Of a stretch of 64,000 nucleotides of DNA, positions 1,224 to 62,490 are shown piece by piece. Under the pieces are notes generated by a model that was not told where the DNA came from, searched no databases, and saw only the letters and a list, made by a program, of their open reading frames with translations. The position numbers and the translations under genes were made by a program. The stretch is taken from positions 216,753 to 280,752 of the forward strand of contig JANVYQ010000001.1 in assembly GCA_030059675.1 (NCBI GenBank), written 5' to 3'. Position 1 is the first letter of the stretch. Every line of letters starts with the position of its first letter. Source of the DNA: Candidatus Pelearchaeum maunauluense. Its GTDB lineage: Archaea; Thermoproteota; Nitrososphaeria_A; Caldarchaeales; Caldarchaeaceae.

Positions 1224-1452
1224 ATTCCTTCTCAGATAGGGCTGACCTACAGTATTGTGGATTAAGCTTATCCTTCAAATCTGAAGGCTGAATATAAGCT
1301 TCAGCACATACAATATCTTACGGAAGCTACACGCGAATATGGTTTATGATTGAACCATTATGCTTAAATCATGCTGACAAACTAATTAGTGATTCTCAGA
1401 ACTGCTCCTGACCAGGCGTAGAATACTATTCCTTACGGTTATTGTAATAGTT

Positions 1453-2008
1453 GTGGCCACTTTAGGAGGAGTGATAGCCTATACAGCTCTACAGCCCTCT
1501 TACAAACTAGCAATAGAACTGCCAGGAAACGAGAAACTGAAAAATTTCACACTCACTGACCAGTATGGAAGGAAGTTTCCATATCTTCCGTCGGGGGGAG
1601 GTTGTCCTCCTATATTTTGGCTATACTAACTGTCCAGATATATGCCCACTCGTCATGAGCAGATTCGCATATCTTGAGGAGAAGTTAGGTGATGATATTG
1701 ATGAGGTGGCCATGATTCTTGTGGCTACCGACCCAGAGCGCGACACGCCTGATGCCCTACGGCGTTATGTTGAGCGATATAGTAGTAGGATTATCGCGCT
1801 TACAGGAACACCACAGCAGATTGAGGAAGTCTTGAAGCTATATGGCATATATTCTGAGAAGTCATTAGAGGAGGATAGAGAATATCTCATCCCACATTTC
1901 GCTCTAGTCATAGTTGCTGATAAGAACATGGTTATGCGTTATGCTCTTACGCCTGAGATGGAGCCTGACGAGTATGTGCGGGCTGTTAGATACCTACTTG
2001 AGAGGTGA
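1453..2008 (+). CDS. SCO1/SenC copper chaperone for oxidase assembly, with an apparent +1 frameshift
   Basis: ORF 1565-2008 carries the thioredoxin-like CPDICP motif in VVLLYFGYTNCPDICP. The upstream frame from 1393 encodes a TM helix and ...NFTLTDQYGRKF, which is the start of the same domain. The two frames meet at a G6 run at 1593-1598. The start codon is uncertain, possibly the GTG at 1453. Confidence 0.7.
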
Positions 2009-2565
2009 ATAGTATGCGACGCGTAAGGATTGCGTTGATTGGAGTAGCTATTATTTTTTCTCTATTAGCCATGTTTGTTTTTTCTGCATCTGCCCAGACT
2101 CAGTGGTGCTCAATAAACTGGGTGGGCGACTACATAGTGGAGTTCCGAATTTATCCTAATCCCATAGTTGCGGGCGAAGAATCTCAACTCCTCTTCAGCA
2201 TACTCAATAAAGACCTTGAGGAAGCTAGGAATATAACAGTCTCAATAGCCGTGTTTGAGGGCTATAAGCTTCTCCATAAATTCCCTAAGAGGCTTTACAG
2301 CATGGGAGACCTAAGCTACACCTACACATTCCCCGACACGGGGGAATATATTGTGCTGTTGAACATCTTTGAGGGCAAGGCAATATTAAGCGGCCAATTT
2401 ACCGTTAATGTGGAGAGGCGCGGGATACACTTCTGGCAGATAGCTGCAGCTCTCCCCATGGTGGTTGCCGCCGCGCTCACAGCAGTATATTACGTGCATA
2501 GATTTAGACAAGCACAACACAGCACGCCGAAAGAATTTATAAACAAGACATCAAATAATGAATAA
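2005..2565 (+). CDS. hypothetical secreted/membrane-anchored protein in the cox-SCO1 cluster
   Basis: N-terminal signal/TM helix, a central beta-rich domain and a C-terminal TM helix. Its start overlaps the SCO1 stop (ATGA-type overlap). No motif recognised. Confidence 0.45.
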   Translation: MNSMRRVRIALIGVAIIFSLLAMFVFSASAQTQWCSINWVGDYIVEFRIYPNPIVAGEESQLLFSILNKDLEEARNITVSIAVFEGYKLLHKFPKRLYSMGDLSYTYTFPDTGEYIVLLNIFEGKAILSGQFTVNVERRGIHFWQIAAALPMVVAAALTAVYYVHRFRQAQHSTPKEFINKTSNNE

Positions 2566-2576
2566 GCAGTAAGGCC

Positions 2577-3230
2577 ATGCTTCGAGTAACACTGAACGTA
2601 CGGATGAACTGCCCCTGGGTTTCCTACATATCTAGAAAATATAATGCGCGCATAACAATTCTTCAATGCGTTCCCCACGTAATGTCTGGCGGCGTCTCTG
2701 CGTTGGTTAAGGTTAAAAGCCCCAACTGCGGCTCTGAGCAGATATCCCGCGCGGTACGTAAAGTTCCCACGGTTCAGGACGCTACTTTCACGGAGATTAG
2801 GCCAAATGTCCATTTTGGGATAGTCAAGACCAGCTTATGCCCCTGTTCCTCAACAATTCTGCCGCATTTTAACCTGATTAACGCTGTAGATAACGGTGAT
2901 GGAGGCCTCCGCTGGACGTTTTTGGTGGATAATGAGAAGAGCTTGAAACAGCTTTCGGAGTATTTGGATAATAATGGTATAGACTATCAGATTGAGGAGG
3001 CGATTAAAATAGAGGATAGCTGGTGCTTGACTGAGAAGCAGGAGCAGGTTATTAGAGCTGCCCTTGAGCTAGGGTTCTACGACATACCCCGTAGAGTAGG
3101 TCTTAAAGAGCTGGCTAAGCTCTTTAACATATCACCCCGCGCGGTATCAGAGATCCTAAGAAGAGCCCACAGGAGGATAATAATCCACGCGCTAGAGACC
3201 CATCAAGTATCTAAATATAACGAGGCATAA
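2577..3230 (+). CDS. HTH_10 (Bat-type) DNA-binding transcriptional regulator
   Basis: The C-terminus LTEKQEQVIRAALELGFYDIPRRVGLKELAKLFNISPRAVSEILRRAHRRI matches the bacterio-opsin-activator type HTH. The N-terminal start is uncertain. Confidence 0.55.
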   Translation: MLRVTLNVRMNCPWVSYISRKYNARITILQCVPHVMSGGVSALVKVKSPNCGSEQISRAVRKVPTVQDATFTEIRPNVHFGIVKTSLCPCSSTILPHFNLINAVDNGDGGLRWTFLVDNEKSLKQLSEYLDNNGIDYQIEEAIKIEDSWCLTEKQEQVIRAALELGFYDIPRRVGLKELAKLFNISPRAVSEILRRAHRRIIIHALETHQVSKYNEA

Positions 3231-3266
3231 AACCTATAAACAGACCAGAAACAACCAATAAGCAGG

Positions 3267-3341
3267 GCGGCCGTGGTCTAGCCTGGGTATGACACGGGCC
3301 TGCCACGCCCGGAATCGCGGGTTCAAATCCCGCCGGCCGCA
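3267..3341 (+). tRNA. tRNA-Gly (anticodon GCC)
   Basis: Acceptor stem GCGGCCG/CGGCCGC with discriminator A. Anticodon stem CGGGC/GCCCG with loop CTGCCAC. T-arm GCGGGTTCAAATCCCGC. No intron. Confidence 0.85.
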
Positions 3342-5304: not shown

Positions 5305-5857
5305 GCGTGGAGCCACATTGACTGTTATTATAGCGGTGTTTGGTAAGAAGAAGAGTGGGAAGACAGCGGTTATAGAAGCATTAATCCGCGCGCTAAACAA
5401 CGATAATCTAACAATAACAGCCGCAAAGCATGTGCATCACGCTGACTTCTCCATAGATAATCCAAGCAAGGATAGCTGGCGATTCGGCAAAGCAGGGGCT
5501 AGGAGAGTCTTCATATTCTCTCCCAACGAGCTCGTTTCCATTGAGAAGACTTCTGGAAATGAGGTTGATGAGGAGAGGCTACTCAATATAATATCAGATT
5601 CGGCTACTGATATAGTGTTCTTGGAGGGGTTTTATCAGACTCTTGCGCGCAATAGCCGTGTCTATAAGCTTGTGGTAGGCCGCGACTCCGGGGATGTTGC
5701 CGATATAGTGAGGGGGTGCCACGAACCATTACTAGGGTGTGCTTTATTGGGTAATGATGACAAATCTAATGAGGTGCTAAAGGCTGGGAAAACATACAAA
5801 CTCTGGGACGATTTTAACGAGCTTGTTAGAGATATTAGAGCGTTGGCGAGGCGTTAA
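5288..5857 (+). CDS. mobB: molybdopterin-guanine dinucleotide biosynthesis protein MobB-like P-loop protein
   Basis: P-loop VIIAVFGKKKSGKT near the N-terminus. Its size and its position after moeA fit MobB. Confidence 0.6.
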   Translation: MYSHYERGATLTVIIAVFGKKKSGKTAVIEALIRALNNDNLTITAAKHVHHADFSIDNPSKDSWRFGKAGARRVFIFSPNELVSIEKTSGNEVDEERLLNIISDSATDIVFLEGFYQTLARNSRVYKLVVGRDSGDVADIVRGCHEPLLGCALLGNDDKSNEVLKAGKTYKLWDDFNELVRDIRALARR

Positions 5858-6108
5858 TACTGGTAGTAATATGATGCTGGTCTTTTTGTGAGCCATCGCG
5901 CTCCTGCAACTAGGTAGATTAATGCGAATATCGCAGCTAGGGCTAGAACAACTAATGATTCTTCTATCGGCCCTCCTCCTATCCGCGAGAGGAATGCAGA
6001 TGGGGTGAGTATGTGTAGTATGCCTGCGAGTATTCCCAAGACGCCGACGGCTTTGGAGCCTGTTCTGCGCGTGGTGAGAAAAGCGGCCAGATATAGTATG
6101 TTGCTCAC
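5854..6108 (-). CDS. small membrane protein; the frame continues upstream across an in-frame TAG to an ATG at 6288
   Basis: 84 aa with 2-3 TM helices and a GTG start. The same frame is open upstream, giving MGWRAG...IFM-TAG-VVSNILY... with the TAG at 6112-6114. This is either two tandem small membrane genes or one 145-codon gene with a nonsense codon. Confidence 0.4.
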   Translation of the reverse strand: MSNILYLAAFLTTRRTGSKAVGVLGILAGILHILTPSAFLSRIGGGPIEESLVVLALAAIFALIYLVAGARWLTKRPASYYYQY

Positions 6109-6323
6109 TACCTACATGAAAATTGGAACTAGAAATGCAACGGCGTATAACACGACAAATGCTAGTCCGCCTAAGCCAGCTCCGCTTAGCTGTGGTGGTG
6201 AGAGGAGTAAGTATAGTAGTATTATTGTGGCGAGGAGCATCAACAGAAATCCTACTGCCGAGGGGGTGATTCCAGCCCTCCACCCCATACGCGGCGCAGC
6301 TTTATTTCTATCTTAAAAATCTT

Positions 6324-6539
6324 CTAACGCGACGCAGAGACTCTACTAGCCATTTTACGTATCTCATCGCGAAGCTGCTTAGCAACATCTAGGATATCGC
6401 GGAAATAGGTTGGCTCAAGCTTTTCAGCCCCATCCCTGATAAGGAGTTGCTCTTCCTCTATTTTCTTCTCCTGAGCATCCAGCTCTATTCCACCCTCTTT
6501 GCGCTGTTCCCCGCTTTTAGTAGCGGTTTTAGCGTTCAT
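6324..6539 (-). CDS. hypothetical small coiled-coil protein
   Basis: 71 aa, charged and coiled-coil-like. It overlaps the next ORF by 11 nt in another frame. It could be the second half of a frameshifted TM plus coiled-coil protein. Confidence 0.25.
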   Translation of the reverse strand: MNAKTATKSGEQRKEGGIELDAQEKKIEEEQLLIRDGAEKLEPTYFRDILDVAKQLRDEIRKMASRVSASR

Positions 6540-6744
6540 TAGGTTCTGCTTTTATCTCGTCTAACGTTTTCTCAAGCTGTTCTAGTTTTTGTTCAAATGG
6601 TGAGAGCATTAGCGTTGGTGGGCGGGATTCTCTCTGCATCATGTTTTCTCTTCTTGTTATGGTGGTTTGTTGCTGGCTTCTCTGATGCGTAGAAGCGGGT
6701 CTGTTTGATGCTATTATTATAACGGCTATGAGCAGGGCTATCAC
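6529..6744 (-). CDS. hypothetical small protein with an N-terminal TM helix and coiled-coil
   Basis: MIALLIAVIIIASN... followed by a ...QKLEQLEKTLDEIK coiled-coil. It lies downstream of the flaJ halves. Confidence 0.25.
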   Translation of the reverse strand: MIALLIAVIIIASNRPASTHQRSQQQTTITRRENMMQRESRPPTLMLSPFEQKLEQLEKTLDEIKAEPNER

Positions 6745-6822
6745 CGCTGCGGTGGCCAGAATCCATGCTAGGGTGTCATTAGCCTGTGGTGGTATTATTG
6801 CGGTTTTCGCCCCCTACGTGGG

Positions 6823-7446
6823 TCATGTGCTCACCAGGCTTGAGAGCTGCCGCCCTATTGAGGCGAATGCATCAAGCACAAAGCCGCTGAGGGCTGCTAC
6901 GCCGAGATACGTTATGCCGCTGACCATCAGCAAGACCTCCGCGTGGAACGTGAAGGTGAATATGGCGTCTCCGTCTGAGAGGTAGATGTTTAGTGCGCTT
7001 ATGACCGCTACGGCCACCGCTATCCAGTAGAAGTATAGGGTTGTTAATGTTGGTGGGATTGGTGTTATGAGTTGAAGGAACTGCGAGACTAGGGAGGATA
7101 TTTCGTTGAATATGCCCATGAGCGAGTTCATTAGGCCGAATATTGCTACCAGCGTCATCTGGAGGGGTATTACCATCCCCTTGAGAACCCCGCTCACTTG
7201 CTTACGCTTCTTATCACGAAGTAGCTGCGTTGTGAGGTACTCGTTCACGACCTCAGCAGCGGTTGTTGGCTTACCGCCTGCGCGTAGCGTCTCGCCATAG
7301 GCGGCCATGCATTTATAGGCGATGTCGCTGAGCGTCTCCACACCGAAGAGCCTCAGCGCATGCGCCTGAGGTATGCCAATCCTTATACGCGCATATAGGT
7401 TTCTAATCAGCGCGTTAAGCGGGCCATAGTCGCTGAGCATCATCAT
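6823..7446 (-). CDS. flaJ: archaellum/type IV pilus membrane protein FlaJ/TadC-like, C-terminal T2SSF-domain half
   Basis: 207 aa polytopic membrane protein with a T2SSF-like helix pattern. Its reading frame stays open 30 codons upstream of MMM and overlaps the end of the preceding T2SSF ORF, which suggests a single flaJ split by a frameshift. Confidence 0.55.
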   Translation of the reverse strand: MMMLSDYGPLNALIRNLYARIRIGIPQAHALRLFGVETLSDIAYKCMAAYGETLRAGGKPTTAAEVVNEYLTTQLLRDKKRKQVSGVLKGMVIPLQMTLVAIFGLMNSLMGIFNEISSLVSQFLQLITPIPPTLTTLYFYWIAVAVAVISALNIYLSDGDAIFTFTFHAEVLLMVSGITYLGVAALSGFVLDAFASIGRQLSSLVST

Positions 7447-7490
7447 CTTGGCCGCGCCAGCGGCCGAGCCTGTGACAGCTATGTAGTCGC

Positions 7491-8402
7491 CTAGGCTCTT
7501 GAAAACATCGGCATATACGCTTCTCTCTCCATAACCAGCCTAACCCATCGCCTGCCAGCTATTCCATGCATCAATAGGGGGGCTGAGGCTATGAGCATGG
7601 AGAGCGGGCCAGGTATCAACGACCTCATCAACAACCCAGCGTCGCTGGGGGCTGGTAGCGTTAGTGGGAGTATGATAAGCACGGCCATGGAAGAGACTAT
7701 GATGATGCGGGAGAGCTGCTCAAGTCTATGTAGTTTCTCAGGCCTATGTGGCTCTTTGTGCATGAGCCTTCTGCGTATGTTGTTCCTTAGAAAGAGAAGC
7801 GTCATGCTGGCTAACGTTGCTATGACTGCCAGGATGGAGATGTTCAGGACGGTAGAAGAGTATTGTGAGCCGTAGATTATCGCCATGAGTAGGAACGCTA
7901 CCGAGAGGAAGCCCATGGAGCTTAGGAGAGCTGAATACGACTCGGCAAGCCTCTTAAGCTTCTCAACCATCTTCTCAAACTCGGCCTCAGGAGACGCCAG
8001 AAACTTCTGGAACTCTATCAGCGTAAAATCGCCAAGACCTACGCCAGCCTGCGCGGCGTGGCTAAGCCTATTGAGAAGCTCGCGGTGGTTTTGGTCTATA
8101 TTATCCGAGGCAGCAGCCCTAAGAGCGGCTGTCTGCAAGTACCCCCACTTCTCAACCATCACCTGTATTTTGGCGAATAGATACGAGACTGGTGTTAGGA
8201 GCTTTTCGCGGCCTAGAATCCGTAGAGCGGTTTTGAGCGGTATCCCTGAAGCTCCTAGGCTTGTTAGGTAGAGTAGTGTTATTGGGTAGAGTTCTGACAG
8301 CCTTCTGTTTAGGGAGAATCGCTTGAGGAGCCTTGTTTTGTGGTTTGTTCTCTTATTTCTGTCTGAGCCATACGCTCTCTCCCCGCTCAACGCGCTCGGC
8401 AA
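7491..8402 (-). CDS. flaJ: archaellum/type IV pilus membrane protein FlaJ/TadC-like, N-terminal T2SSF-domain half
   Basis: 303 aa with cytoplasmic helical domain plus TM pairs typical of the GspF/FlaJ family. It lies directly downstream of the flaI remnants. Together with 6823-7446 it totals about 510 aa, the usual FlaJ size. Confidence 0.6.
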   Translation of the reverse strand: MPSALSGERAYGSDRNKRTNHKTRLLKRFSLNRRLSELYPITLLYLTSLGASGIPLKTALRILGREKLLTPVSYLFAKIQVMVEKWGYLQTAALRAAASDNIDQNHRELLNRLSHAAQAGVGLGDFTLIEFQKFLASPEAEFEKMVEKLKRLAESYSALLSSMGFLSVAFLLMAIIYGSQYSSTVLNISILAVIATLASMTLLFLRNNIRRRLMHKEPHRPEKLHRLEQLSRIIIVSSMAVLIILPLTLPAPSDAGLLMRSLIPGPLSMLIASAPLLMHGIAGRRWVRLVMEREAYMPMFSRA

Positions 8403-10065
8403 CCTTTGCCACGCCCTCGTCGTAGCAGAGCTTCACAACGTTCCAAACCTGCTCGTAGTCGGTTATCCCCAGCTCCACTAGGCGCTGGAGAATCCACGCC
8501 CTCCTCTCCAGCTCGTCATAAACCCGCCGCGCATCGCGGCGCGAGAAACCCATAAGAGTAAGTATCTTGGTCTCAAGAAGAAAGCTGTTTCCCTCACCCC
8601 TAAAACATGCACACCATCAACAGCATCCCAGCTGAAGAGCTCTATGAAGTCAAAACTATCCATGCTTGGGTCGTAGCCCGCCATCTCATTTACGCTCAGT
8701 ATGCGGCGCTCAACCTTCCCTGTCCGCGGTATCCTTACCGCGCTCTGGATTACTACGCAGTTGAGTATATCTATGTAGGTCTTGGGTATGTTTATCGGGT
8801 CTCCCGTGAGGCGTTGTATAACCTTCTCCACAGAGCCTGCGTGGAACGTTGCCAGCACTGGATGCCCTGTCTGCATGGCTTGGAATGCCACCGTGGCCTC
8901 GGCTCCGCGTATCTCGCCGACTATGATGAAGTTCGGCCTCTGCCTAAGCGCCGCCTTGAGCAGGTCAAAGAGCTCCACACTGGGTCCTCCCTGCTCGCCC
9001 TGCCTAGTAACCTCCCTAACCCAGTTGCCGTGGGGGACGATTATCTCAGGCGTGTCCTCTATGCTTATTATCTTGGCCTTTGGGTTGATGAAGACGCAGG
9101 CCGCTCTCAGGGCTGTTGTCTTCCCAGAGGCGGTCTCCCACAGAACCATACACTAAAGCCATACTCAAGCAGTAGCCAGAGGTAGGCAGCCTCAAGGGCG
9201 CTGAGCGTGCCCCACTGTATCAGGCTGGTTATGCTCACAGGCTTCTCGGAGAACTTTCTTATCGTGAAGTTTGAGCCACACCTGCTAATATCGCTGCCGA
9301 ACACTATGTTTATGCGCAAGCCGTCTGGGAGGGGGCGTCGACTATGGGCCGTCTATACGTTACAGGCCTCCCAGCCCTCTCCGAGAGCCTTAAGACAAAG
9401 CCATCAAGCTCCTCCGCGCCATTAAACCTAACGTTAGTCTCACAGCTTCCGAAGATTTTATGCTCAACAAACACGGGCCCGACGCCGTCGCATGGTATAT
9501 CCTCTATGTATTGGTCGCGGATGAACGGCTCAAGCGGGCCTAGATAGACCTTCTCCATGACCATCTCAAAGCGGAGCGCGTCAAACGTTTCCTGATTCAC
9601 GTATATTGCGAGCAGCTTACCCTTACGTCTCGCTTCATTATATTCCCAGAGCTCTAGGCTGTCGTCAACTACTAGAATTTGGTCCAGCAGCTCCATGAGG
9701 AGCTGTTCATGCTCCTCTTTTGTCGCGAATGTTTTGGTAGCGTCTATGAGCGCCGCCATTCCTTCTTCAACCAGCATAAGCAGGTCCCGCGCCTCTGGAG
9801 GAGCTTGCGGCGTTACCGCGTTGTAATACGCGCGCTCACCCTCGCGCGAGTAGACGTGTATGAAGATTGGGACTCCCACTGGGTAGATTATGCTGAAGCT
9901 CTTCTGGTATCGTAGGTCTCTGGAGAGCTGTTCGCGGTACTCTATTGGCCTGCCTGTCCTGCGGCTCCATTCTATGATATACCTCTGTAGATGCGGGAAA
10001 CGCGCGGCTATTCTTCTTATTTCTGCGCCGCCAGCGAGTTTTTGCTGGGAGACCTGAACCGACAT
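8353..10065 (-). pseudogene. flaI: archaellum ATPase FlaI (VirB11/PilB-family secretion ATPase), broken into four frame segments
   Basis: Segments 9310-10065, 9107-9319, 8478-9149 and 8353-8553 read as follows. N-domain ...YIEDIPCDGVGPVFVEHKIFGSCETNVRFNGAEELDGFVLRLSERAGRPVTYRRPIVDA. Then INIVFGSDISRCGSNFTIRKF...LWLLLEY. Then Walker A WETASGKTTAL ...IEDTPEI...RPNFIIVGEIRGAEA...FQAMQTGH. Then C-terminal DARRVYDELERRAWILQRLVELGITDYEQVW. The junctions fall at a C5 run (about 9322), at about 9149/9107, and at a T-run (about 8553). Confidence 0.8.
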
Positions 10066-10078
10066 GTATGGCGCCTCC

Positions 10079-10819: not shown

Positions 10820-11306
10820 TCAAATCATCGAGCCATGCCTCAACCTCTATCGTTTCACGCACATTCCAGATACCAGAATAACCATCAACAAGGTCTATGT
10901 GGTCTAGTAGCTCGCCAGCAAAACCGTTGGTATATACAGCTATTATACGCCATCCCTCTGGTTTCGCCCTACCTGGGTCGTAAGACAGCCATACACTACG
11001 TAAAGCGCCATCAGTCTTTCTTACGTATGTGATTATTACATCAACGTATCTAAAGTTGGCCGCCCTATGCGCGTATGGCCCTTCGTTCTCCACGTAGAAT
11101 TGGATAAGATGGGGCTGGACGACCGTTATGTTTAGTATTTTGTAGTGGTTTTGTCTTAATGCTATTTCTGCTGATTCTATCGTTGATTTCTGTAATTCTA
11201 CCAGCAGGCTACCTGCTGCCGTGAATAGTAATAGGGCTGGGATAAGTGTCATGGCCGCAAGCCACGCAGCAGCTATCGTGGCGAAGCCCGACATGTCGGA
11301 ACACAC
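10761..11306 (-). CDS. flaF: archaellum protein FlaF-like
   Basis: 181 aa with one N-terminal TM helix followed by a beta-rich soluble domain. Gene order G-F-H-I-J. Confidence 0.5.
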   Translation of the reverse strand: MCSDMSGFATIAAAWLAAMTLIPALLLFTAAGSLLVELQKSTIESAEIALRQNHYKILNITVVQPHLIQFYVENEGPYAHRAANFRYVDVIITYVRKTDGALRSVWLSYDPGRAKPEGWRIIAVYTNGFAGELLDHIDLVDGYSGIWNVRETIEVEAWLDDLIDGQYPVLVRFVGAEWVGG

Positions 11307-12481
11307 TATACTGAGAAGTAGTAATCAGACTTCTGGCCCAGATAGGCCACGAACCTAACGAAGTACTCGCCAGCGCTCAACGTGAAGTTAAGCGTAATCG
11401 TTATGAGTAGTGTCTCGCCTGGGTCCCATCTTCCGTCGTTATCAACGTCGTTCATGGCTGTGTATGTCCAGCCCAGTGATGTTCCTTGGTATGGTATACT
11501 TACCAACATGCTTCGGTTCCCTAGGAAGATGTCGGATAGCTTAACCAGCTCTGGGTGTATGTCTGCGCTTCCCGTATTCTTTACCCATGCTCTTACCTCG
11601 CTGCTCCCAGAGGTTGATGTGGCGAATATTATCTCCGTATCTATTGAGAGCTCCTTTTTGAGCCGTTCTATTTTTTCGCGGTGCGCTTGGCCGAGGTCTC
11701 CCAGTGTGGTGAATACCGATGCAGAGAACGCCGACGCAGCCACTATAGCGGCTATCAGGATTATTGCCTCAGCTATCACGTAGCCCGTCGGCATACCCTT
11801 AGAACCCCCAGACTTTCCGTGAATATTGGACTGGCCTGAGAGGCCATGAAGCCTGTCAAACGCCGTGAGGAGAAGCAATAGTAGTGGGCCGTCTTCCTCA
11901 TGCGCTACTTTTGATAGTAGATAGAGAACAACCAACACATTACCCAGACCATAGTTCTTAGGAGCCAGCGACTCGTATTGAAGGCCAAAATCACTTCTGG
12001 CAGAGAGTTCCAGCGCTTCTTTAACGTCATCGGCTATATCCTTAGGCAACAATCCTTTCCAGGCCATCATATTTACTATGTTTAAGACCTGCTCGCGGCC
12101 AACGAGACCTATCATAAGATACGTGGCAGCCATTATGTTTAGGAACCTACCGAGACTTCTCCCCTCTGTTCTACGCGGTATTATTGATAACTGTTCATAA
12201 TGCTGTTTTAAGGGCTCTATCTGCTGATGAGGCTCTTCTTTATGCTGTTCCATGTCGGACTTTTTACTCTGCTGGGTTTTTAGCTCAGGGATGTTTGAGC
12301 CTAGAAGCGCGCTAACATAGGTGAATGGGTTTTCAAGTGTTCCGAGAATTTCACGCACATCTAGGAGTGTCTTCTCTAATGGCTCCTTGAGGCTCTTCAC
12401 CTCTTCCTCAAGTTGCCGCAGTTTCTTTTCTAAAGGGTCGCGGGATGGAATCTCTTCGCCTGCCAATACCTCCACCTCCAA
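11306..12481 (-). CDS. FlaX/FlaCDE-like coiled-coil domain fused to a FlaG-like domain
   Basis: 391 aa. N-terminal coiled-coil KKLRQLEEEVKSLKEPLEKTLLDVREILGTLEN. A FlaD/E-like segment ATYLMIGLVGREQVLNIVNMMAWKGLLPKDIADDVKEAL. C-terminal archaellin-like hydrophobic helix GMPTGYVIAEAIILIAAIVAASAFSASVF plus a beta domain, as in FlaG. Confidence 0.5.
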   Translation of the reverse strand: MEVEVLAGEEIPSRDPLEKKLRQLEEEVKSLKEPLEKTLLDVREILGTLENPFTYVSALLGSNIPELKTQQSKKSDMEQHKEEPHQQIEPLKQHYEQLSIIPRRTEGRSLGRFLNIMAATYLMIGLVGREQVLNIVNMMAWKGLLPKDIADDVKEALELSARSDFGLQYESLAPKNYGLGNVLVVLYLLSKVAHEEDGPLLLLLLTAFDRLHGLSGQSNIHGKSGGSKGMPTGYVIAEAIILIAAIVAASAFSASVFTTLGDLGQAHREKIERLKKELSIDTEIIFATSTSGSSEVRAWVKNTGSADIHPELVKLSDIFLGNRSMLVSIPYQGTSLGWTYTAMNDVDNDGRWDPGETLLITITLNFTLSAGEYFVRFVAYLGQKSDYYFSV

Positions 12482-12490
12482 ACACCCCTA

Positions 12491-13024: not shown

Positions 13025-13133
13025 ATCTTATTAAAATAAGATTTGAGATGTATAAAAATTCATAAACAAACTTATTTAGAATACTACTGAAATAATGATA
13101 AAAATACAACAGGATAATTGGAAAAGCAAAAAG

Positions 13134-13902
13134 ATGGAGACGGGGATTAACTGGGCTTGAGACAGCGATTATACTGATAGCCTTCGTCATCGTCGCCAGC
13201 GCCTTCGCCGTAGTCAGCAGTTTCAAGATAGATAGACTTCAGATGGAGGGGTTTTCCCCAGGCCTAAGGCTCTTCCAAGAGCTTATGGGGGCTTGGGGTG
13301 GGTTCACCCTGACAGGGGATGAGGCTGACGAGGGCTCCGATGAACTCATGAGGAGCCCGAGGCTGATGAATCCCAAGACTTACGTATGTCTATGAAAGAC
13401 TACGTAGGTCAGAACCCGTCCTAAATCTGGACATGTTCACGACGCAGAAGAGCTCAGAAGCCATGCAGGCTGGCTTGCAGGGGTCGCTCAGCTCTATAGA
13501 GATTGCGGGCGCGGTCATAGCCCAGGCCGACACAACTGTAACGCCAGCTAAGGTGAAGAATATCACCATACACATCAAGACGGCTGTCGGGAAGGCAGCC
13601 CCATAGACATGTCAAAGGATAAGCTCGTAATAGCCTACCGAGACCCCAACACGTTCCTAGAGAACATCTACACAGATACGTACATTCTTAACAATAACAT
13701 AACCGTAGCAGAAGTAACAGGCGATGGCGACTCTGTGCTGGAGTATGGTGAGGTCTGGAAAATCGTCATAGCCATACCAGAGCTGGCCAACCTAAACCCC
13801 AACGACATATTCGCGGTGGAGATAAAGCCACCTGTAGGCTCGCTACTGAAGGTTGAGCGAAGGCTACCACCCGCCTTCGACGCTGTTATGGACCTGACCT
13901 AA
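13134..13902 (+). pseudogene. flaB: archaellin (FlaB) with class III signal peptide, disrupted by an internal insertion of about 196 nt and by frameshifts
   Basis: Frame 1 (13102-13395) reads KRWRRGLTGLETAIILIAFVIVASAFAVVSS, which matches archaellin N-termini. Frame 2 (13418-13606) reads VLNLDMFTTQKSSEAMQAGLQGSLSSIEIAG...NITIHIKTAVGKAAP. Frame 1 again (13609-13902) gives the C-terminal domain ...VTGDGDSVLEYGEVWKIVIAIP... The ATG at 13134 is out of frame by one base. The mid/C junction is at a C4 run (13599-13602). Confidence 0.75.
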
Positions 13903-14950: not shown

Positions 14951-14952
14951 CC

Positions 14953-15934
14953 ATGCAGGGTATGGAGACTAGGGAGCACGCGTTAATAGGGCTTGTGATA
15001 ATCTCGATAATAATAGCTACTGGCTCTATCTTATTCTCATTCATGAAGGGCATAAACATCTTTGACGCGTTCTACTGGACGATAACTGTATTGACAACGA
15101 TTGGCTTTGGGAATATTGTACCAACGACTCCACAGGCTAAGATTCTGTATATAGCGCTGGTAGTGTCGGGTATAGCGTTTTATGGCTATTTCGTAACCAG
15201 CATAAGCGAGTCAAAGCCGAAAACATCTTAGCAGCGTATTTGCCTGGGATATACATGTCGCGTAGGTTGCAGAACCATACGATAATAATTGGCTGGAATA
15301 GGTTCTCTGAGGCTGCCTATGAATAGCTGGAGATAAACGGCAGAAATCCAGTCGTTGTTGTTGAGGATGAAGAGAGGGCGCGTATGCTCTCTAGGAGCGG
15401 TGTTAGGGTTATGTATGGCGACCCCGCAGATGAGAATATTCTAAAAGAAGCGGGGATAGGTGGATGTAGTTCTCTATAATCATAACTGATGTAAATACTG
15501 AGAAGAAGCTTATCTATATGCTCAAGACACGAAAGCTACGCGGGGGTGTTCCTATCATAGTTCTGAGCAGGAAGCGGGGGATGCGCGACATCTATAAACA
15601 AGCGGGAGCAACGCGCATAGTTGACGCATACGATATTGTTGGAAGGCTTCTGGCGGGAAGTGTCTTTGAGCCGCTAGCGAGTGAGGTTTTATATGATATG
15701 GCTGAATCCTCCAAGGATCTAGACATAACCGAGGCGGGGGTAGGAGTAGAAGCAACGATAGAAGAGCTGGAGCAGCAAGGATTCAAAGCACACATAATAC
15801 TCGTAGAACGGAACAATGAGAGAATATACACGCCACCATATAATTTCAGGCTAAAACCTGGCGATAAGGTTGTTTTGGTTGGAAATGCCAGCGATATAGC
15901 TAGGGACTTGAGAATGCTCGGCGGTGGGTCATAG
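14953..15934 (+). pseudogene. MthK-like K+ channel (pore + RCK/TrkA-N + TrkA-C), with two frameshifts and an in-frame TAG
   Basis: Pore ORF 14953-15231 carries the selectivity filter TVLTTIGFGN. The RCK continues in shifted frames: HTIIIGWNRFSEAAYE-TAG(15324-15326)-LEINGRNPVVVVEDEERARMLSRSGVRVMYGDPADENILKEAGIGG, then 15479-15934 ...IYMLKTRKLRGGVPIIVLS... plus a TrkA-C domain. The junctions are at an A4 run (15220-15223) and near 15471-15478. Confidence 0.75.
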
Positions 15935-36927: not shown

Positions 36928-37622
36928 ATGTTTAAGAACGGCCAAGAGATGGATTGGTTGAGAGCCTGTATAATGAGCATAGATATTGAAGACATAATTA
37001 AGAGAGCTGTCACCGCCGCGAGAACCGAAGAGCTCCGCATGATGGCTGAAGCCGTTAAGTCATTAGCCGAGTATATGCGCGACGGCTTCCAAAAGATTAA
37101 CCAACGATTAGAGGAGAACTCAAAGATACTCGCAGAACACTCAAACAGCTAGAGGTTCATTCAAGACAGTTAGAGGCCCATTCAAGGTATCTTGAGAGAC
37201 TCGTCAACGAGGTGGGTGGATTGAAGACCATGTTAGGCTCCTTTACGTCTAGGTCTGGTGTCCATATGGAGAGAATGGTGCTGGAGCTTCTTAGAAAAAC
37301 GCTCCTAGAACGTGTGGCTATTGATGTGGATAGTATTGAAAAGCGGAGCTTCGTAGATGAGCGTGGTGAGCTTGTTCAAGAATGCCACAAGATAGAGATA
37401 GATATCTACATGACGGACAAGCAAGCTTATGCGCTGGAAGTTAAAACGCTTGTCGAGAGCAAGGATGTGGATTGGATTGTAGCTAAAAAGAGGTTCTTGG
37501 AGCGTAGTTATAATATGCGCGCTAGGTGGCTTATTGTGGCTTCGGCGATAACGCAAGAAGCGTATATGAAGGCTATTAAGGGGGGTATTGAGGTTGTCTG
37601 CAGGAGTATAGTGGGCGAGTAG
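36928..37622 (+). CDS. DUF3782-like protein: coiled-coil repeats plus C-terminal PD-(D/E)XK-like domain, with an apparent -1 frameshift
   Basis: ORF 36928-37152 (...QRLEENSKILAEHSNS-stop) continues in the next frame as ...KQLEVHSRQLEAHSRYLERLVNEVGGLKTM... into ORF 37212-37622. The junction is an A3 run near 37145. The C-terminal motif EIDIYMTDKQAYALEVK is nuclease-fold-like. Confidence 0.55.
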
Positions 37623-47500: not shown

Positions 47501-48732
47501 GGCTCCAGCCCGTATCTATGTTGTGCCAGTATTGTTGGCTTTGTGCCGCTTATCAAGACTACGTCTTCCAGTCTAACGCCTCCTATCTCAGGATAGTAAA
47601 GCCCAGGCTCTACTGTCGTTATCATGTTCTTTTCTAGTTTTTGCCGCTCGTTGAGGGTTAGGTATGGTTCTTCTCCTATTGTGAGGCCTACTCCATGGCC
47701 TAGGCTGTGTATGAAGCCCCTTGTCTCTGCTTCGCGGTTTCCTTGGTAGAGGTCAAGTATTGTGAGCCTCCCACGTGATTTGAAGAGCTTGCATGTTGCT
47801 TGCATGGGCTCCATACATGGAGCCCCTTCGCGTAGCGTGTCCATCGCCTCGCTGTGAGCAGCTAGAACGTCCTCAAACATCGTGATAAGCTCCCTTGATG
47901 GTCTTCCAACCGCGTATGTGCGTGTAAAGTCAAACCAGTAGCCCGTGCTGTCTTGTGGGAAGATGTCAAAGACTATCGGCTCTCCCTCGCGTATTGGTTC
48001 GTGTTCAAGCCCCTTCTCATGTGGATCTGCTGATGATGGGCCAGCAGCTAGGATATGGTCTTCTGGGAGGGATAGTCCCTCCTCAGCGCACCATACGCGG
48101 ATGAGCCGCTTAACCCAGCCTATCCTGACAACCTCACCCCCATACGTCGCAACCCCCTCACGAATCTCCATGCTGCGCAGAAGCTCCTCCAAGCGTCTAA
48201 CCACGTTTAGCGTCTTCTCACCAGCGCGTTTTATGGCGCCAACCTCCCAATCGTCCTTTGTTCTTCGCGCGATGTCAAGTATTGTGGGCCGCTCCTCACC
48301 GACTACTGCTATACGCTTCCTGCGCAGACCGTTGAACACGTTTATTATGCTGCTAGCCTCGTTTCTCCCGTGTAGGGCTACCCTGCCCCTCACGCGGCTC
48401 TCCCTGACAATCCTAGCCAGTAGCTCTACGAAGGCCTTGCGCCTTCCATGGCGTTTAACCAGCTTAGGATAGTCGTAGTCGTTGTATGTCTTCACGTTTT
48501 TTACAATACCCTTCTTGGCGCTTCCCACATCAAGGGCGCTCACAACGAGCAGGGGCTCGTCGCCGCGTTTCTTCAGATAAACACCCCCTCGCGGCAGCTC
48601 GCAGCGGGTTAGATAGGCCAGCTCAGGATTCCCTAGGGTAGAGTCGCCGTAGCAGAGAAGAGCAGCTATACCGCGCTTCCTCATCAAAGAATCAAGCTCG
48701 CCAATCATATCTCCCCATGTAAGGAACGACAA
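47497..48732 (-). CDS. M24-family Xaa-Pro aminopeptidase/prolidase
   Basis: Pita-bread fold metal ligands (HSLGHGVGL, ...EPGLYY...). 411 aa. Confidence 0.8.
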   Translation of the reverse strand: MSFLTWGDMIGELDSLMRKRGIAALLCYGDSTLGNPELAYLTRCELPRGGVYLKKRGDEPLLVVSALDVGSAKKGIVKNVKTYNDYDYPKLVKRHGRRKAFVELLARIVRESRVRGRVALHGRNEASSIINVFNGLRRKRIAVVGEERPTILDIARRTKDDWEVGAIKRAGEKTLNVVRRLEELLRSMEIREGVATYGGEVVRIGWVKRLIRVWCAEEGLSLPEDHILAAGPSSADPHEKGLEHEPIREGEPIVFDIFPQDSTGYWFDFTRTYAVGRPSRELITMFEDVLAAHSEAMDTLREGAPCMEPMQATCKLFKSRGRLTILDLYQGNREAETRGFIHSLGHGVGLTIGEEPYLTLNERQKLEKNMITTVEPGLYYPEIGGVRLEDVVLISGTKPTILAQHRYGLEP

Positions 48733-48905
48733 GCACTATATACCTGCTGGGCTATACTCAGCGCGTCCTCAGCGTCAAGACGTGTATAAGGCTCCTCTGG
48801 CGGTGTTCCTGTCTTCATACATACTAAGCTCTCTTTCGCGTCTGCATGTATTAATCGTTCCTCAACCTGCCTTAGGTATGAGCGCACCATGTAAAGGTTA
48901 TTCAA
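48705..48905 (-). CDS. possible HEPN-like partner of the adjacent nucleotidyltransferase
   Basis: A 66 aa ORF immediately downstream of the MNT gene. It overlaps the MNT stop and the peptidase start. Weak helical HEPN-like N-terminus only. Confidence 0.2.
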   Translation of the reverse strand: MNNLYMVRSYLRQVEERLIHADAKESLVCMKTGTPPEEPYTRLDAEDALSIAQQVYSACRSLHGEI

Positions 48906-49405
48906 TCTCTATCACCTCTCCAAACCTATAGTCTGGCTTCAAATCCCAATACCAGCGCCTACCTACATGCACGCGCCTGGCACCAAGTTCCCGCAGTCTC
49001 TCGTTAAGTCTATCTAGGATTTTTCTGAAGAAGCCTCCCTTAACATAGAGTATTTTCGCGTCTTTAACCATGTCAAGGTAGAGCGGCCTTATTCTATTCG
49101 CTTCTTCTGGAGTTAGTAGCATCGGTGAGAAGTCGGTGTATATTCCCCTACTCCAGAGCTCGTCTAGAAGCTCCTTTACAGACCGCTCTGCCTGCATGAA
49201 TAGTTCCTGCCTCCTTAGCCTACTTGATGGCAGGCCTTCAACAATTACGAGCAAGTCCACGTCGCTGTCATCTCTCGCATCACCCCTAGCCACGCTGCCG
49301 CGTAGACGACGAGAGATACTAGGCGCTCACCGAAGAACTCTTTGAGAGCCCTGAGGAGCGCGTTGAGTAGTTCTTCGTATTCCTGCCGCAACTCTCTAAT
49401 AGCCA
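48898..49405 (-). CDS. minimal nucleotidyltransferase (MNT, pol-beta superfamily), with an apparent +1 frameshift
   Basis: ATG at complement 49403-49405 gives MAIRELRQEYEELLNALLRALKEFFGERLVSLVVY.... After a one-base slip near 49300 this continues as GSVARGDARDDSDVDLLVIVEG..., the GS...DxD NTase motif. Confidence 0.6.
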
Positions 49406-50703: not shown

Positions 50704-50739
50704 CTTCACAGCCGTTTTGTGAATATCCTTTACAGTGAA

Positions 50740-51300: not shown

Positions 51301-51352
51301 TCTATTCTTTTAGTCTTAAGTCTTCTATGGATTACGAAGCTATGGAGCATAC

Positions 51353-53909: not shown

Positions 53910-54512
53910 TTGCCCCGCGTTGTTGGAATAGACCTGGCAGGCTCCCCCAGGAGACCAACAGGCTACTGCGCCGTTTGGGGCGAGCCTATACGCTGCGAGG
54001 CTGGCGTGGTCTATCAAGACAGGGAAATCATAGACCTCATTACACGCTTCTCCCCTGATGTAGTAGCGATAGACGCGCCTCTCACACTACCGCGCGGTAG
54101 GAAGAGCCTAGACCGCCGCGAGCGCGCTCACTTTAGGGAATGCGACCTAGAGCTGCGTAGGCGTGGGATAAGGTTCTTCCCGATAACCCTAGGCCCCATG
54201 CGCAGCCTGACGCGGCGCGGAATCACGCTGCGCGGCCTGCTGGTGGAGAGGGGCCTCAACGTGATAGAGGTCTATCCAGGTGGCGCGCAGGACGTTCTCG
54301 GCCTTCCGAGAAAGCATCGCGACATTCGCGGCCTGCTCGCTGGTCTGAGGAGGATGGGGTTTAGATGCCTCAAGAGAGACGCCTCAGGAGACGAGGCCGA
54401 CGCCGCTACATGCGCGCTAGTCGGACTACTATACCTCCGCAACAGCTACGAAGCGCTAGGAGACGTGGAAGAGGGAGTGATAATAATGCCTAGGAGAGAG
54501 TCTGGGCTATAG
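53910..54512 (+). CDS. RNase H-fold protein of the DUF429-like type
   Basis: The N-terminus VVGIDLAGSPRRPTGYCAV resembles DUF429/YqgF-like nucleases. Confidence 0.3.
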   Translation: MPRVVGIDLAGSPRRPTGYCAVWGEPIRCEAGVVYQDREIIDLITRFSPDVVAIDAPLTLPRGRKSLDRRERAHFRECDLELRRRGIRFFPITLGPMRSLTRRGITLRGLLVERGLNVIEVYPGGAQDVLGLPRKHRDIRGLLAGLRRMGFRCLKRDASGDEADAATCALVGLLYLRNSYEALGDVEEGVIIMPRRESGL

Positions 54513-55001
54513 ATACCTGCTCGCTACTATGCTCCCCACAGCTATACACGCCAGCGTGTATAGTATCATGTAGCCCGCGTGTATCTGGAGGGGACTTGGG
54601 CTGCTTATCCCAAGGAGGAAGTAGCGCGAGAGCGATGTTGAGTGCGTGAGGGGGTTTAGAGATGCCGCCAGCTTCAGCCAATCTGGCATCTGCCGCAGGG
54701 GGAAGATAGCATTACTGGTGAAGAGCAGCGGTAGATTAACCAAGTTGGCTACTGAGATAACTAGGTCGTGGCTGGTTATCCTGATCGCTATAGCCGTGAA
54801 TATAGCCGCGAGCGCCAGTATGAGCGAGGCCATCACAACATAAACTGCCAGTATATCCAGTATTGTTATCCCCTGCCTGGGTGTGAAGCCCACGACAAAG
54901 ACGAAGAGGAGCATGAAGCTGAACTGGAGCAATCCTTTCGCGAGTGTTGAGAGGGCTTTAGCCAGGCAGATGCTCACACGCGGTATAGGCGCTGCGCGCA
55001 T
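54507..55001 (-). CDS. ABC-2-type transporter permease, apparently only the C-terminal half
   Basis: 164 aa with 4 TM helices and a ...FPLRQMPDWLKLAASLNPLTH... motif typical of ABC-2 permease C-termini. There is no N-terminal half and no ATPase gene nearby. Confidence 0.4.
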   Translation of the reverse strand: MRAAPIPRVSICLAKALSTLAKGLLQFSFMLLFVFVVGFTPRQGITILDILAVYVVMASLILALAAIFTAIAIRITSHDLVISVANLVNLPLLFTSNAIFPLRQMPDWLKLAASLNPLTHSTSLSRYFLLGISSPSPLQIHAGYMILYTLACIAVGSIVASRYL

Positions 55002-55067
55002 ACGCTCAAGATAGCCTAGACGCTATCCACCCACTTAAAGCTCCTACCGGCAAATATGTATGTGTGT

Positions 55068-59476: not shown

Positions 59477-59834
59477 CAAAAGAGGTAGAAGGTTGAGAAA
59501 ATAGAGGAGGGTGGAGATAGCTTTAGCTAGCTTAAATCCCATCCTGGTAGTGGTGGTCCTGCGTTAGCTGATATTATGAGCTGTAGCGCTAGTAGGGCTG
59601 TTAGGGTTGCTAGGCCTAGGACTGTCCATTTTGACGGCTTTGTTGCGAAAAGGCTTCGTATCGCGAATATGCGTATCATACTCCTTATACACCGCTATTT
59701 TCTAGACTTAGGTTGGAGATAACTTTTTCGTTTTGATTTCTCATGATAGTATATAAAGCTTTAGCAGATTATAAACCATAAAACAAAACAACCAAAGTAA
59801 GGATGTTTGAAAAAGGAAAGAGAGTTTTCGGGGT

Positions 59835-60527: not shown

Positions 60528-60597
60528 TAACGGGGTGTGCTGACACTATTTAAACAGAAGGAGCATTATTGTAGAGATTTAAGAGAGAGACGAATGC

Positions 60598-60984
60598 TTG
60601 GATAATGTTGGGATGGGTCTCGTCTATGTGAATGGCTCAGTAGCCTATGGCGGGAAGAGGGTTAGGGTCAGCTTCTTAGTGGATTCATGCGCCACCTATA
60701 CTGTCTTGAAGAAAGCTGTCTGGGCTGAGCTGGGCTTAAAGCCTATGAGGGAGTCCGAGTTCATACTGGCTGACGGCACGGTGATAAAGAGAGCGTTATC
60801 AGAGGCCTTGATAGAGCTTCCAGGCTATGGAGAGTATCACAGCCCAGTAGTCTTAGGCGAGGAGGAAGACGAAAACATGCTGGGAGCGGTAACTCTTGAG
60901 ATATTCGGGCTGGTTTTAGACCCGTTTAAACGCGAGCTAAGGCCTATAAGGTCTTTGATGAAGCTTCTAGCCGCTAAGCTCTAG
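60598..60984 (+). CDS. retropepsin-like aspartic protease
   Basis: 128 aa with the DSCAT motif in VRVSFLVDSCATYTVL (clan AA D-S/T-G-A-like) and a flap-like ...ADGTVIKRA... segment. Confidence 0.45.
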   Translation: MDNVGMGLVYVNGSVAYGGKRVRVSFLVDSCATYTVLKKAVWAELGLKPMRESEFILADGTVIKRALSEALIELPGYGEYHSPVVLGEEEDENMLGAVTLEIFGLVLDPFKRELRPIRSLMKLLAAKL

Positions 60985-61329
60985 GTAGAGCTTCACGGCA
61001 AGCTCGGCGAATCTTGGGTCGTTAATGTCGGTGCCCAACTCCTCTATGGCTACGTTTCTGCCTAGCTGTTGTTTTAGGCGTTCTACGAAGAGCTTATTGC
61101 TCCCAGGCTCGTATAGCTCTCCGCCCTCTACGTCTAGGACTGACCAGCCCCTCGTGGGTATTACGAATGCTATCCCCCTTTTGAATTGGTTTAGCTTCTG
61201 GGCTAGCGTGTCGCATACCTGCATGAGCTCCTCGCGGATTAGCCTGACGTTGAGGTTGTATGGGTTGTGGGTGGATTTTACATCCCTCCCTGAAGCGTTG
61301 GGGTATGCTCTCAAGGGGGCCGAAGACAA
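60967..61329 (-). CDS. hypothetical protein, possible gene fragment
   Basis: 120 aa ORF. It overlaps the 3' part of the aldolase remnant in another frame. No motif recognised. Confidence 0.2.
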   Translation of the reverse strand: MSSAPLRAYPNASGRDVKSTHNPYNLNVRLIREELMQVCDTLAQKLNQFKRGIAFVIPTRGWSVLDVEGGELYEPGSNKLFVERLKQQLGRNVAIEELGTDINDPRFAELAVKLYLELSG

Positions 61330-61728
61330 GGTAGTTGATGCTCCCTGGAGCAGCGACTAGCGGCGGTACGCGCTCAGCAAGCGCGAACGCAGTAGAGTAG
61401 GACGGATGACCATGAATAACAGCGTTCAACTCAGGCCTAGCCTTGTAAATCCCTAGGTGGAAGCGATACTCCTTAGAGGGCTGCCCCTCCCCCAAAGCTT
61501 ACGCCCCTCAAGGTCTATAACGCTCATCATGACGAGCATCCTATCGCTGTGGTAGTTACCCCCCTCTTGGGCAGCCCCACTCCTAGGCCTCCTCCCCAAC
61601 CTCCTTATCAAATCCCTATACCTCTTGCCTTTGAGGCCTGCCGTTATGAAGTCTCCGTCCGCCTCGATCACGCCTGACAGCCTAGCCACGTCCGTCTGAC
61701 TAGATAGGATGGGTAGAATCTTATACAC
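61094..61728 (-). pseudogene. class II aldolase/adducin-family protein (FucA/MtnB-like), frameshifted
   Basis: 61453-61728 encodes ...SGVIEADGDFITAGLKGKRYRDL...VIDLEGRKLW. Then a -1 slip at a G5 run near 61478. Then 61094-61495 encodes GEGQPSKEYRFHLGIYKARPELNAVIHGHPSYSTAFA, which are the PSsE...H..iY...AVvH.H motifs. Confidence 0.55.
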
Positions 61729-61989
61729 GGTGCCACATCCTATCTTGAGGGGTAGGCCGTGATGGAGGTGTTCACGAAGAGAAGGACGAACTCTACTAGG
61801 CTTAGCCTAGAGTAGTGCAGCAATGTTCCAGTCTTGTCGTTAAAGCTCCCACCACATCCCCTGCAGAGATACCTACCCCACCTCTTAAACAACCCCTTAT
61901 CCAGACACTATTGTTAAAGTTTAAAAATAACTTAATCGAATAGTATGAATGGATAAGACAAGCCGCAGGGCCCTCGAATGGGGGCTCTG

Positions 61990-62490
61990 CTATAATCGTG
62001 TCTCTTCTATTATGTCGTATATATAGGTTACTTTATCTGCTAGTAGTTTCAAGTCTCTTCCTAGAGCGTCTTTAAACGAGGCTATCTCCACTCGTTTTCC
62101 TTGGTCTTTTACAGTCTTCACGGCTTCTATGTAATCCGAGTCCCCACTAACCAGTATAGCCGTATCGTATGCATTCCTAAATGCAAGCGTTATCAGTTTA
62201 GTTACTAACGCAACATCGACGCCCTTTTCTATTCTTATCGATTGTCCTTGAAACTGTCTCTCCCTTAGAGGCCTTGCGAACACCTCTATCCCGTTGAGGC
62301 TTAGGTTATCGTAGAACTTCTGAGGCTTCTTATCAGGATGGTATGAGCCGAAGAATTAACTCCTAACAAGATACCTATCCCCGCAGAGTGATTTAACAAG
62401 CTTAAGATAGTCAATCCTTAGTTGTTTCTTGTTTCTAGCACTCCACCGATTAGCCGAGTGCAAAACATTAGAACCATCTATGAAAATCAT
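61990..62490 (-). pseudogene. NYN (LabA-like PIN) domain protein with in-frame TAA stop at codon 45
   Basis: ATG at complement 62488-62490 gives MIFIDGSNVLHSANRW...YLVRS-TAA(62356-62358)-FFGSYHPDKKP.... This continues in frame into ORF 61990-62283, ending ...DTAILVSGDSDYIEAVKTVKDQGKRVEIASF. The gene is visibly AT-rich. Confidence 0.6.

Follow-up and report, generated by a model that had tools for sequence, protein, structure and literature searches.

Why are so many reading frames interrupted in one stretch of an archaeal genome, and are the interruptions real? The stretch in question, hereafter the window, consists of 64,000 nucleotides (nt) from the metagenome-assembled genome (MAG) 146_bin21 of Candidatus Pelearchaeum maunauluense. 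It corresponds to positions 216,753-280,752 of contig NODE_10_length_371327_cov_6.04; gene _254 (CoxII), at 217340-217975 of the contig, is found at window 588-1223, and gene _267, at 225230-225901, at window 8478-9149, with identical protein sequences. Positions given below are those of the window. The genus Pelearchaeum and this MAG, which comes from a Hawaiian fumarole, were described by Balbay et al. 2023, who assembled the MAG with metaSPAdes from paired reads using k = 21-77 (PMC10547907).

An earlier note on this DNA had counted about fifteen homopolymer indels and three in-frame stop codons, and had read them as on/off switches of a mutator lineage, with homopolymer-biased sequencing error as the alternative. 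We find that lesions are indeed present and that the small ones alone (±1, +2 and nonsense changes) number at least 23, in 13 of 69 genes; only about half of the 1-nt indels, however, lie in runs of 3 or more. The lesions are most probably real, lineage-specific inactivating mutations of the population from which the MAG was obtained, and would have accumulated under relaxed selection on dispensable genes. What is shown directly is that the lesions exist, that they cluster and are missing from sister genomes, and how the assembly was made. Real mutations are favored because the lesions cluster by gene and join types that error cannot make; relaxed selection would be the underlying cause.

In a length-weighted simulation, 19.1 genes were expected to be hit, compared with the 13 observed (P = 3.7e-4), and seven genes carry 2-3 small lesions each. 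FlaI has 3, FlaJ 2, a SCO1 paralog 2, an MthK-like channel 3 (two indels and one nonsense codon), and archaellin 3 in addition to an insertion of 208 nt. Core genes in the window (IlvD, Cdc6, V-ATPase subunit I, NadE and others) are intact, decay being confined to accessory genes. An earlier count had placed 12 of 17 lesions within the first 16 kb (P = 1.4e-4).

Sister sequences were retrieved by protein-cluster look-ups and comprised two MAGs from Brothers volcano (GCA_015520425.1 and GCA_015522085.1), an ENA scaffold of 53 kb and Logan contigs. They cover 54.8 kb of the window at ~90% nucleotide identity, and the fetched loci end at about window 59.7 kb. Among the species-representative genomes scanned, the closest FlaH match belongs to a Candidatus Pelearchaeum MAG from a submarine volcano (locus L001; 95% amino-acid identity), which puts the window in Caldarchaeales (Aigarchaeota); a scan of metagenome contigs detected distant relatives only (58-60% identity). 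Lesions were checked by reading every claimed coordinate, translating all frames, searching for partial-profile matches in Pfam and NCBIfam, and aligning the sister sequences.

Every broken gene that has an ortholog in the sisters is intact there. The sizes of the intact proteins, in amino acids (aa), are 571 for FlaI, 516 for FlaJ, 330 for MthK, 163 for MNT, 139 for HEPN, 281 for an ABC-2 permease, 327 for its ABC ATPase, 485 for a second permease and 202 for SCO1; the genes for a 143-aa membrane protein and a 163-aa hypothetical protein are likewise intact in sister loci.

The archaellum cluster

Four features of the archaellum cluster carry lesions:

6823..8402, minus strand: FlaJ/ArlJ pseudogene, with 1-nt deletions at 7504 and 8338 placed by sister alignment.
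8353..10065, minus strand: FlaI/ArlI pseudogene in four pieces, with 1-nt deletions at 8602-8606, 9137-9140 and 9331-9335.
11306..12481, minus strand: FlaX-like and FlaG-like genes fused into one open reading frame (ORF) of 391 aa, with a -1/+1 pair at 11800 and 11808.
13095..13902, plus strand: archaellin (FlaB/ArlB) pseudogene, with a 208-nt insertion, an extra G at 13595 and an extra C at 13602.

Both FlaJ and FlaI are uninterrupted in L001, and when five bases are added back to the window sequence, full-length ORFs of 571 aa (FlaI) and 516 aa (FlaJ) are obtained. The same FlaI fragments are seen as Prodigal calls _266 to _269 in the published supplement (PMC10547907). In FlaI, the slip that had been suspected within 9107-9149 is the 1-nt deletion at 9137-9140. 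Lesions also exist at the other two runs that had been singled out, but at other positions: the T-run placed near 8553 is at 8602-8606, and the C5 run placed near 9322 is at 9331-9335. The two FlaJ deletions, the pair at 11800/11808 and the extra base at 13595 had not been listed; neither had the +1 at ~6550, the 208-nt insertion, a deletion of ~219 nt in HEPN and one of 1.33 kb, all described below.

The ratio of nonsynonymous to synonymous substitution (dN/dS) against the sister is ~0.10 for FlaI and FlaJ. Because such a value indicates purifying selection over most of the divergence, inactivation of these genes must be recent relative to the species split.

In the FlaX/FlaG fusion, nucleotide comparison reveals that the -1/+1 pair has put the intervening stop codon out of frame. 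The L001 counterpart consists of two ORFs, of 229 and 162 aa, with a TAG between them, and the ArlG/ArlF profiles match the fused ORF at residues 236-375 only.

The archaellin frames were read by three-frame translation against the archaellin of locus L002, and Pfam Arch_flagellin is split across two ORFs. The C4 run at 13599-13602 contains one extra C, as had been claimed. In contrast, the out-of-frame ATG at 13134 that had been taken for a lesion is doubtful as a start: the gene would more plausibly begin at 13095, where an ATG is followed by an A5 run (13100-13104) that would have gained one base.

The insertion occupies 13210-13417, takes the place of TTCGCC and lies inside the conserved N-terminal hydrophobic helix of archaellin. 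Sister contig L016 reads IILIAFVIVASAFAFAVLNLGMFTTQK and lacks it. The inserted sequence continues the frame of the upstream exon for 61 codons without a stop, has a 4-nt CCGT repeat at its flanks and a predicted fold stabler than that of shuffled sequence (z = -4.3). Its open frames gave no Pfam match, and no second copy was found in the window or in related loci L001-L009.

What kind of sequence the insertion might be was considered in several ways. An intron was suggested by archaellin calls of sisters in the supplement, which start with 'MFTTQK' just after the insertion site. Three observations led to the rejection of an archaeal bulge-helix-bulge (BHB) intron. No canonical hBHBh' motif is present at junctions that would restore the frame, an Rfam search returned only C/D-box noise (E = 5-8), and the sister DNA of L016 is devoid of the insertion. 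Contig ends account for the shortened sister calls, as does a deletion of the fla cluster in sister 2. A miniature inverted-repeat transposable element was also rejected, as the insertion has no clear terminal inverted repeats and no second copy in the window or the related loci searched. One possibility is that this structured insertion could represent an undescribed small mobile element.

A different type of loss is found in sister 2 (GCA_015522085.1; L013:1-330, and also ENA scaffold L012:1-180). There, 12 nt replace the equivalent of window 6999-13454, and the 3' end of FlaJ is joined straight to the archaellin gene. Judging from this alignment, the whole archaellum cluster is deleted in sister 2 (~6.3-6.5 kb), independently of the point decay seen in the window. 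The genus has thus seen independent losses of the archaellum.

With FlaI, FlaJ and archaellin in this state, the archaellum is predicted to be non-functional in this genome. This prediction bears on the published annotation. The KEGG Orthology (KO) table for the MAG lists flaI five times, flaJ twice and flaB once (PMC10547907 supplement). Three of the flaI entries are pieces of the one broken gene in the window, and a separate, intact FlaI/FlaJ-like pair is carried by NODE_280. The MAG is the nomenclatural type of Pelearchaeum maunauluense, and its motility genes are tabulated as present, while the archaellum cluster of the window would be defunct. KO-count metabolic predictions for the genome need revisiting at split genes.

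Other broken genes and remnants

Small lesions also affect the following loci:

1393..2008, plus strand: SCO1/SenC paralog pseudogene, with two 1-nt deletions, one that shortens T4 to T3 (1577-1579) and another inside 1593-1601.
5854..6288, minus strand: gene for a 143-aa membrane protein, with a nonsense change TGG to TAG at 6112-6114.
6324..6816, minus strand: gene for a 163-aa hypothetical protein, split by a +1 in a T-run at ~6550.
14953..15934, plus strand: MthK-like K+ channel pseudogene, with a -1 in the A-run 15220-15225, a TAG at 15324-15326 and a +2 (TC) at 15471-15474.
36928..37622, plus strand: DUF3782/PD-(D/E)XK gene, with a frameshift (net -1) near 37141-37148.
48705..49400, minus strand: MNT-HEPN pair, with a +2 (CG) at 49301 in MNT and an internal deletion of ~219 nt (48811-48843) in HEPN.
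61990..62508, minus strand: NYN/LabA-like gene, with an in-frame TAA at 62356-62358.

The SCO1 gene is broken, as had been proposed, but not by a +1 in a G6 run: alignment with two sister orthologs of 202 aa reveals two single-nucleotide deletions. In a tblastn search residues 1-57 fall in frame 1 and residues 63-199 in frame 2, and Pfam SCO1-SenC matches the C-terminal ORF only. An intact SCO1 paralog is encoded on the same contig (gene 391).

The stop codons that had been reported are all present. The TAG at 6112-6114 is derived from TGG, since sister protein P0121, which aligns over its full length (143 aa, 83% identity), is uninterrupted and has W where the membrane protein has a stop. Codon comparison with the sisters indicates that the TAG at 15324-15326 in MthK comes from GAG. 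In the NYN gene a single frame is open save for the TAA; Pfam NYN (71-143/145) matches the downstream ORF, and Prodigal divides the gene into _335 and _336.

The 163-aa hypothetical gene aligns with its sister ORF in two frames (residues 2-88 in frame -2, residues 88-164 in frame -3). In MthK, tblastn matches spread over three frames, and Pfam Ion_trans_2 and TrkA_C fall on separate ORFs. The A-run at 15220-15223 had been correctly identified as the site of an indel, and one base has been lost there; the second shift, described as a slip near 15471, is instead a duplication of TC. For the MNT gene, where a lesion near 49300 had been suspected, the lesion exists and is a +2 insertion of CG. HEPN is cut to 66 aa; the sister encodes a 163-aa NTP_transf_2 protein and a 139-aa HEPN protein.

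The frameshift of the DUF3782 gene, which had been placed near 37145, is seen in the frame translation. The Pfam matches, PDDEXK_10 and DUF3782, are confined to the downstream ORF, and the gene lacks a counterpart in sister locus L025, where ~60 nt separate the cyclase and CBS genes. Two loci of the window, 36928-37622 and 56448-57236, harbor related genes that combine a coiled coil with PD-(D/E)XK (DUF3782/DUF8196 type) and are variable among sisters: the first is absent from scaffold_372 and the second is present in sister 1 only. Such a distribution suggests a mobile or rapidly turning-over family.

Three further loci are remnants of larger rearrangements:

27781..28924, plus strand: permease remnant, with the junction of a ~6.6 kb deletion at 27906-27911 and a 43-codon ORF fused upstream.
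54507..55028, minus strand: ABC-2 (DrrB-like) permease remnant, with the junction of a ~1.33 kb deletion at 55016-55028.
60967..61728, minus strand: aldolase/UPF0261 fusion remnant, in which part of a class II aldolase gene runs into the C-terminal part of UPF0261.

The CCCGGG run at 27906-27911 had been taken for a slip in the permease gene and is actually a deletion junction. The ~6.6 kb that were deleted comprised permease codons 1-148 and about six neighboring genes. Homology with the 485-aa sister permease begins at residue 149, which is window 27911, and the remnant matches positions 127-385 of 386 of the CytX profile only. On the sister scaffold, genes for a luciferase-like protein, ETF alpha, ETF beta, a Fer4/CCG protein and a FAD-oxidase lie beside the permease. 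The 43-codon ORF upstream of the permease gave no Pfam or NCBIfam match; from synteny, it may be the start of the sister's FAD-oxidase gene.

The ~1.33 kb deletion took the ABC ATPase gene and the first ~110 codons of the ABC-2 permease. Pfam and NCBIfam matches to the remnant run from profile positions 84/85 on, and tblastn covers residues 111-282 only.

A lesion in a G5 run near 61478 had been attributed to the class II aldolase gene; the locus is instead a fusion remnant. Its aldolase part matches the profile up to ~112 and its UPF0261 part ~266-399 of 410, and the frame changes at least twice. Pfam finds Aldolase_II (64-110/183) and UPF0261_C (117-217/218) in different frames, in a region outside sister coverage.

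A tyrosine recombinase gene (62504-63598) adjoins tRNA-Lys (63630-63706). The interval 59700-63706, which includes the aldolase/UPF0261 remnant and the stopped NYN gene, probably represents an integrated element in decay; a search of the window for an attachment-site repeat was negative.

Two additional observations concern other parts of the window. The interval 50700-51350, upstream of cdc6/orc1 (51353-52654), is a likely candidate for a replication origin: it is AT-rich, with a GC content of 0.32-0.35 at 50700-50900, and a 32-nt inverted repeat (51036-51067 / 51202-51233; GTTCCATAGGAAATGAAGGGGT...) resembles origin recognition boxes. Besides, the stretches 40652-41390 and 24940-27909 align with nothing in the fetched sister loci, although the second gap may be unfetched sequence. 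They hold a gene for a 241-aa membrane protein and genes for a VOC protein and a HIBADH-type oxidoreductase.

Causes of the lesions

Whether the lesions are mutations or errors can be examined through their distribution. Of 13 single-nucleotide indels in broken genes, 7 are located in runs of 3 or more and 6 in runs of 1-2. Lesion-bearing runs are short (3-6 nt), and in its 64 kb the window has a single run of at least 7 nt; runs of at least 6 nt number 23, and 21 of them are free of any catalogued lesion. Run-length spectra are alike in the window and in L001, an independent short-read sister contig: the number of 6-nt runs per 10 kb is 3.4 in the former and 3.2 in the latter, compared with 8.7 in the pooled Caldarchaeum loci (L002-L009).

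In the alignment with the sisters, the density of indel events is highest between genes (26.9 per kb), lower in broken genes (2.35) and lowest in intact ones (0.69). The intact genes, which amount to 40 kb, contain no uncompensated frameshift, and every frame is open; those of their indels that are not multiples of three seem either to compensate each other in pairs or to be placed at the ends of genes. The intergenic indel:substitution ratio is 0.197, as measured on 3.9 kb of aligned intergenic DNA and with no repair-proficient baseline compared. Broken genes show 112 mismatches above the rate of intact genes, a figure that equals 22 indels divided by 0.197. Median divergence per gene is 10.3% for broken genes vs. 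9.3% for intact ones (P = 0.007), and window-branch amino-acid changes across the fla genes are 36 vs. 18.

Could the small lesions be consensus errors? Some or all of the 1-2-nt lesions might be artefacts of low-coverage assembly or of chimeric strain paths, with the large deletions and the insertion still real. A k-mer coverage of ~6x makes this conceivable, as does the fact that about half of the 1-nt indels in broken genes fall in runs of 3 or more; FlaI and FlaJ, with five frameshifts, no nonsense codon and a low dN/dS, would also fit. We nevertheless consider it unlikely. Short-read de Bruijn assembly rarely introduces indels at runs of 3-6 nt, and nearly all runs of 6 or more are free of catalogued lesions. 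Errors would not be expected to cluster by gene in a contig whose run-length spectrum equals that of a sister contig, nor to leave all reading frames open across 40 kb of intact genes. In addition, lesions that sequencing error cannot give coincide with small ones: the insertion in archaellin, the nonsense codon in MthK and the deletion fusion in the aldolase remnant. As to the homopolymer-biased sequencing error offered as an alternative in the earlier note, assembly of paired reads by metaSPAdes, clustering by gene, lesion types beyond the reach of homopolymer error and a slightly raised divergence all speak against it, while clustering, mixed lesion types and intact sisters support its opposite claim that the mutations are real.

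The on/off switches postulated in the same note would require mononucleotide tracts that act as reversible contingency loci in a mutator lineage without mismatch repair. Changes of ±1 at short runs are certainly prominent here, and the intergenic indel:substitution ratio of 0.20 might be compatible with this reading. Hyperthermophilic archaea lack MutS and MutL, and the spontaneous spectrum of Sulfolobus acidocaldarius is rich in frameshifts (PMC4471258). No MutS, MutL or NucS gene is present in the window; in the supplement, among the matches listed, NucS is found in Caldarchaeum relatives only (PMC10547907). However, the tracts measure 3-6 nt, with a single run of 7 or more in the entire window, and roughly half of the 1-nt indels lie outside runs. 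Seven genes have 2-3 independent small lesions, spread through the gene rather than gathered in one 5' tract, and many of them (nonsense codons, +2 duplications), like the 208-nt insertion and the kilobase deletions, could not be reversed. Reversible switching is, in our view, very improbable. Programmed recoding, by which ribosomal frameshifting or stop-codon readthrough would give full-length proteins, can be practically dismissed: one or two bases suffice for each repair, but nothing specific points to recoding, the sister ORFs are ordinary and uninterrupted at the same positions, and several shifts per gene occur in both directions and in unrelated contexts.

Gene decay by real mutations must also be confronted with observations that weigh against it. 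The coverage of ~6x, taken from the contig name, is low; that reads support the consensus at each lesion is inferred, and a metagenome consensus can mix strains. Illumina library preparation is explicit for the Chile samples only (PMC10547907), and the platform used for the Hawai'i sample is deduced from 'paired reads' and metaSPAdes. Within the archaellum cluster, FlaH, FlaG/F and a 177-aa gene are free of lesions, a pattern that neutrality of the entire operon would only marginally predict. In FlaJ taken by itself, lineage-specific changes are not in excess (5 window-specific vs. 8 sister-specific amino-acid changes), and because of this the signal of extra substitutions is weak gene by gene. 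Lastly, accessory genes may evolve faster anyway, a circumstance that would confound the excess of divergence.

Under the interpretation that we favor, lineage-specific decay, selection would have been relaxed on a set of genes dispensable in this lineage: the whole archaellum cluster, the redundant SCO1 paralog, the MthK-type channel, the MNT-HEPN pair, two transporters, the small membrane and hypothetical genes, and the integrase-adjacent genes. Once a gene or operon became dispensable, ordinary spontaneous mutations would no longer be purged and would pile up, often several per gene. The mutational input would consist of 1-nt indels (about half in short runs), 2-nt duplications and nonsense substitutions, together with larger events such as the 208-nt insertion and deletions from 0.2 to 6.6 kb.

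A broader scenario can be put forward tentatively: the window might reflect early, lineage-specific genome erosion in a Caldarchaeales species of marine-vent ancestry that took up life in a terrestrial fumarole, with an unusually indel-rich input and recurrent archaellum loss. Three of four AOR genes are described as 'fragmented' in the MAG (PMC10547907), and gene splitting may accordingly be genome-wide. The window offers a small, clean case of recurrent archaellum loss within one genus and a spectrum of inactivating mutations from an uncultured thermophilic archaeon. Should the lesions be borne out by reads, this archaeal genome would serve as a natural record of accumulated mutations.

Comparison with known systems

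Pseudogenisation in the window is of a known, ordinary kind and reveals no new mechanism. Its resemblance to the artefacts of 454, Ion Torrent and Nanopore sequencing is limited to the splitting of genes by ±1 changes at short runs. The differences are that paired short reads were used, that lesions cluster by gene, that long runs are mostly spared and that the run-length spectrum is that of the sister.

Another parallel is the mutational spectrum of hyperthermophiles without MutS/MutL, such as Sulfolobus acidocaldarius and Pyrobaculum (PMC4471258), in which, as here, single-nucleotide indels, many of them in short runs, account for much of the inactivation. Here, however, about half of the 1-nt indels are outside runs, and 2-nt duplications, nonsense codons and large deletions are present too.

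A further likeness is to the accumulation of pseudogenes and the decay of operons in prokaryotes under relaxed selection, for instance the loss of motility after a habitat shift. The case described here differs in that it involves one low-coverage MAG rather than isolates, and in that decay is recent, with a dN/dS of ~0.1. As for habitat, the Hawai'i genome was recovered from the rock of a fumarole, whereas those of its relatives are of submarine-vent origin, a contrast from which an ecological cause can only be guessed. The shared traits are orthologs that remain intact in relatives, several mixed lesions per gene, accessory genes hit while core genes stay intact, and a sister lineage that has lost the same operon by deletion.

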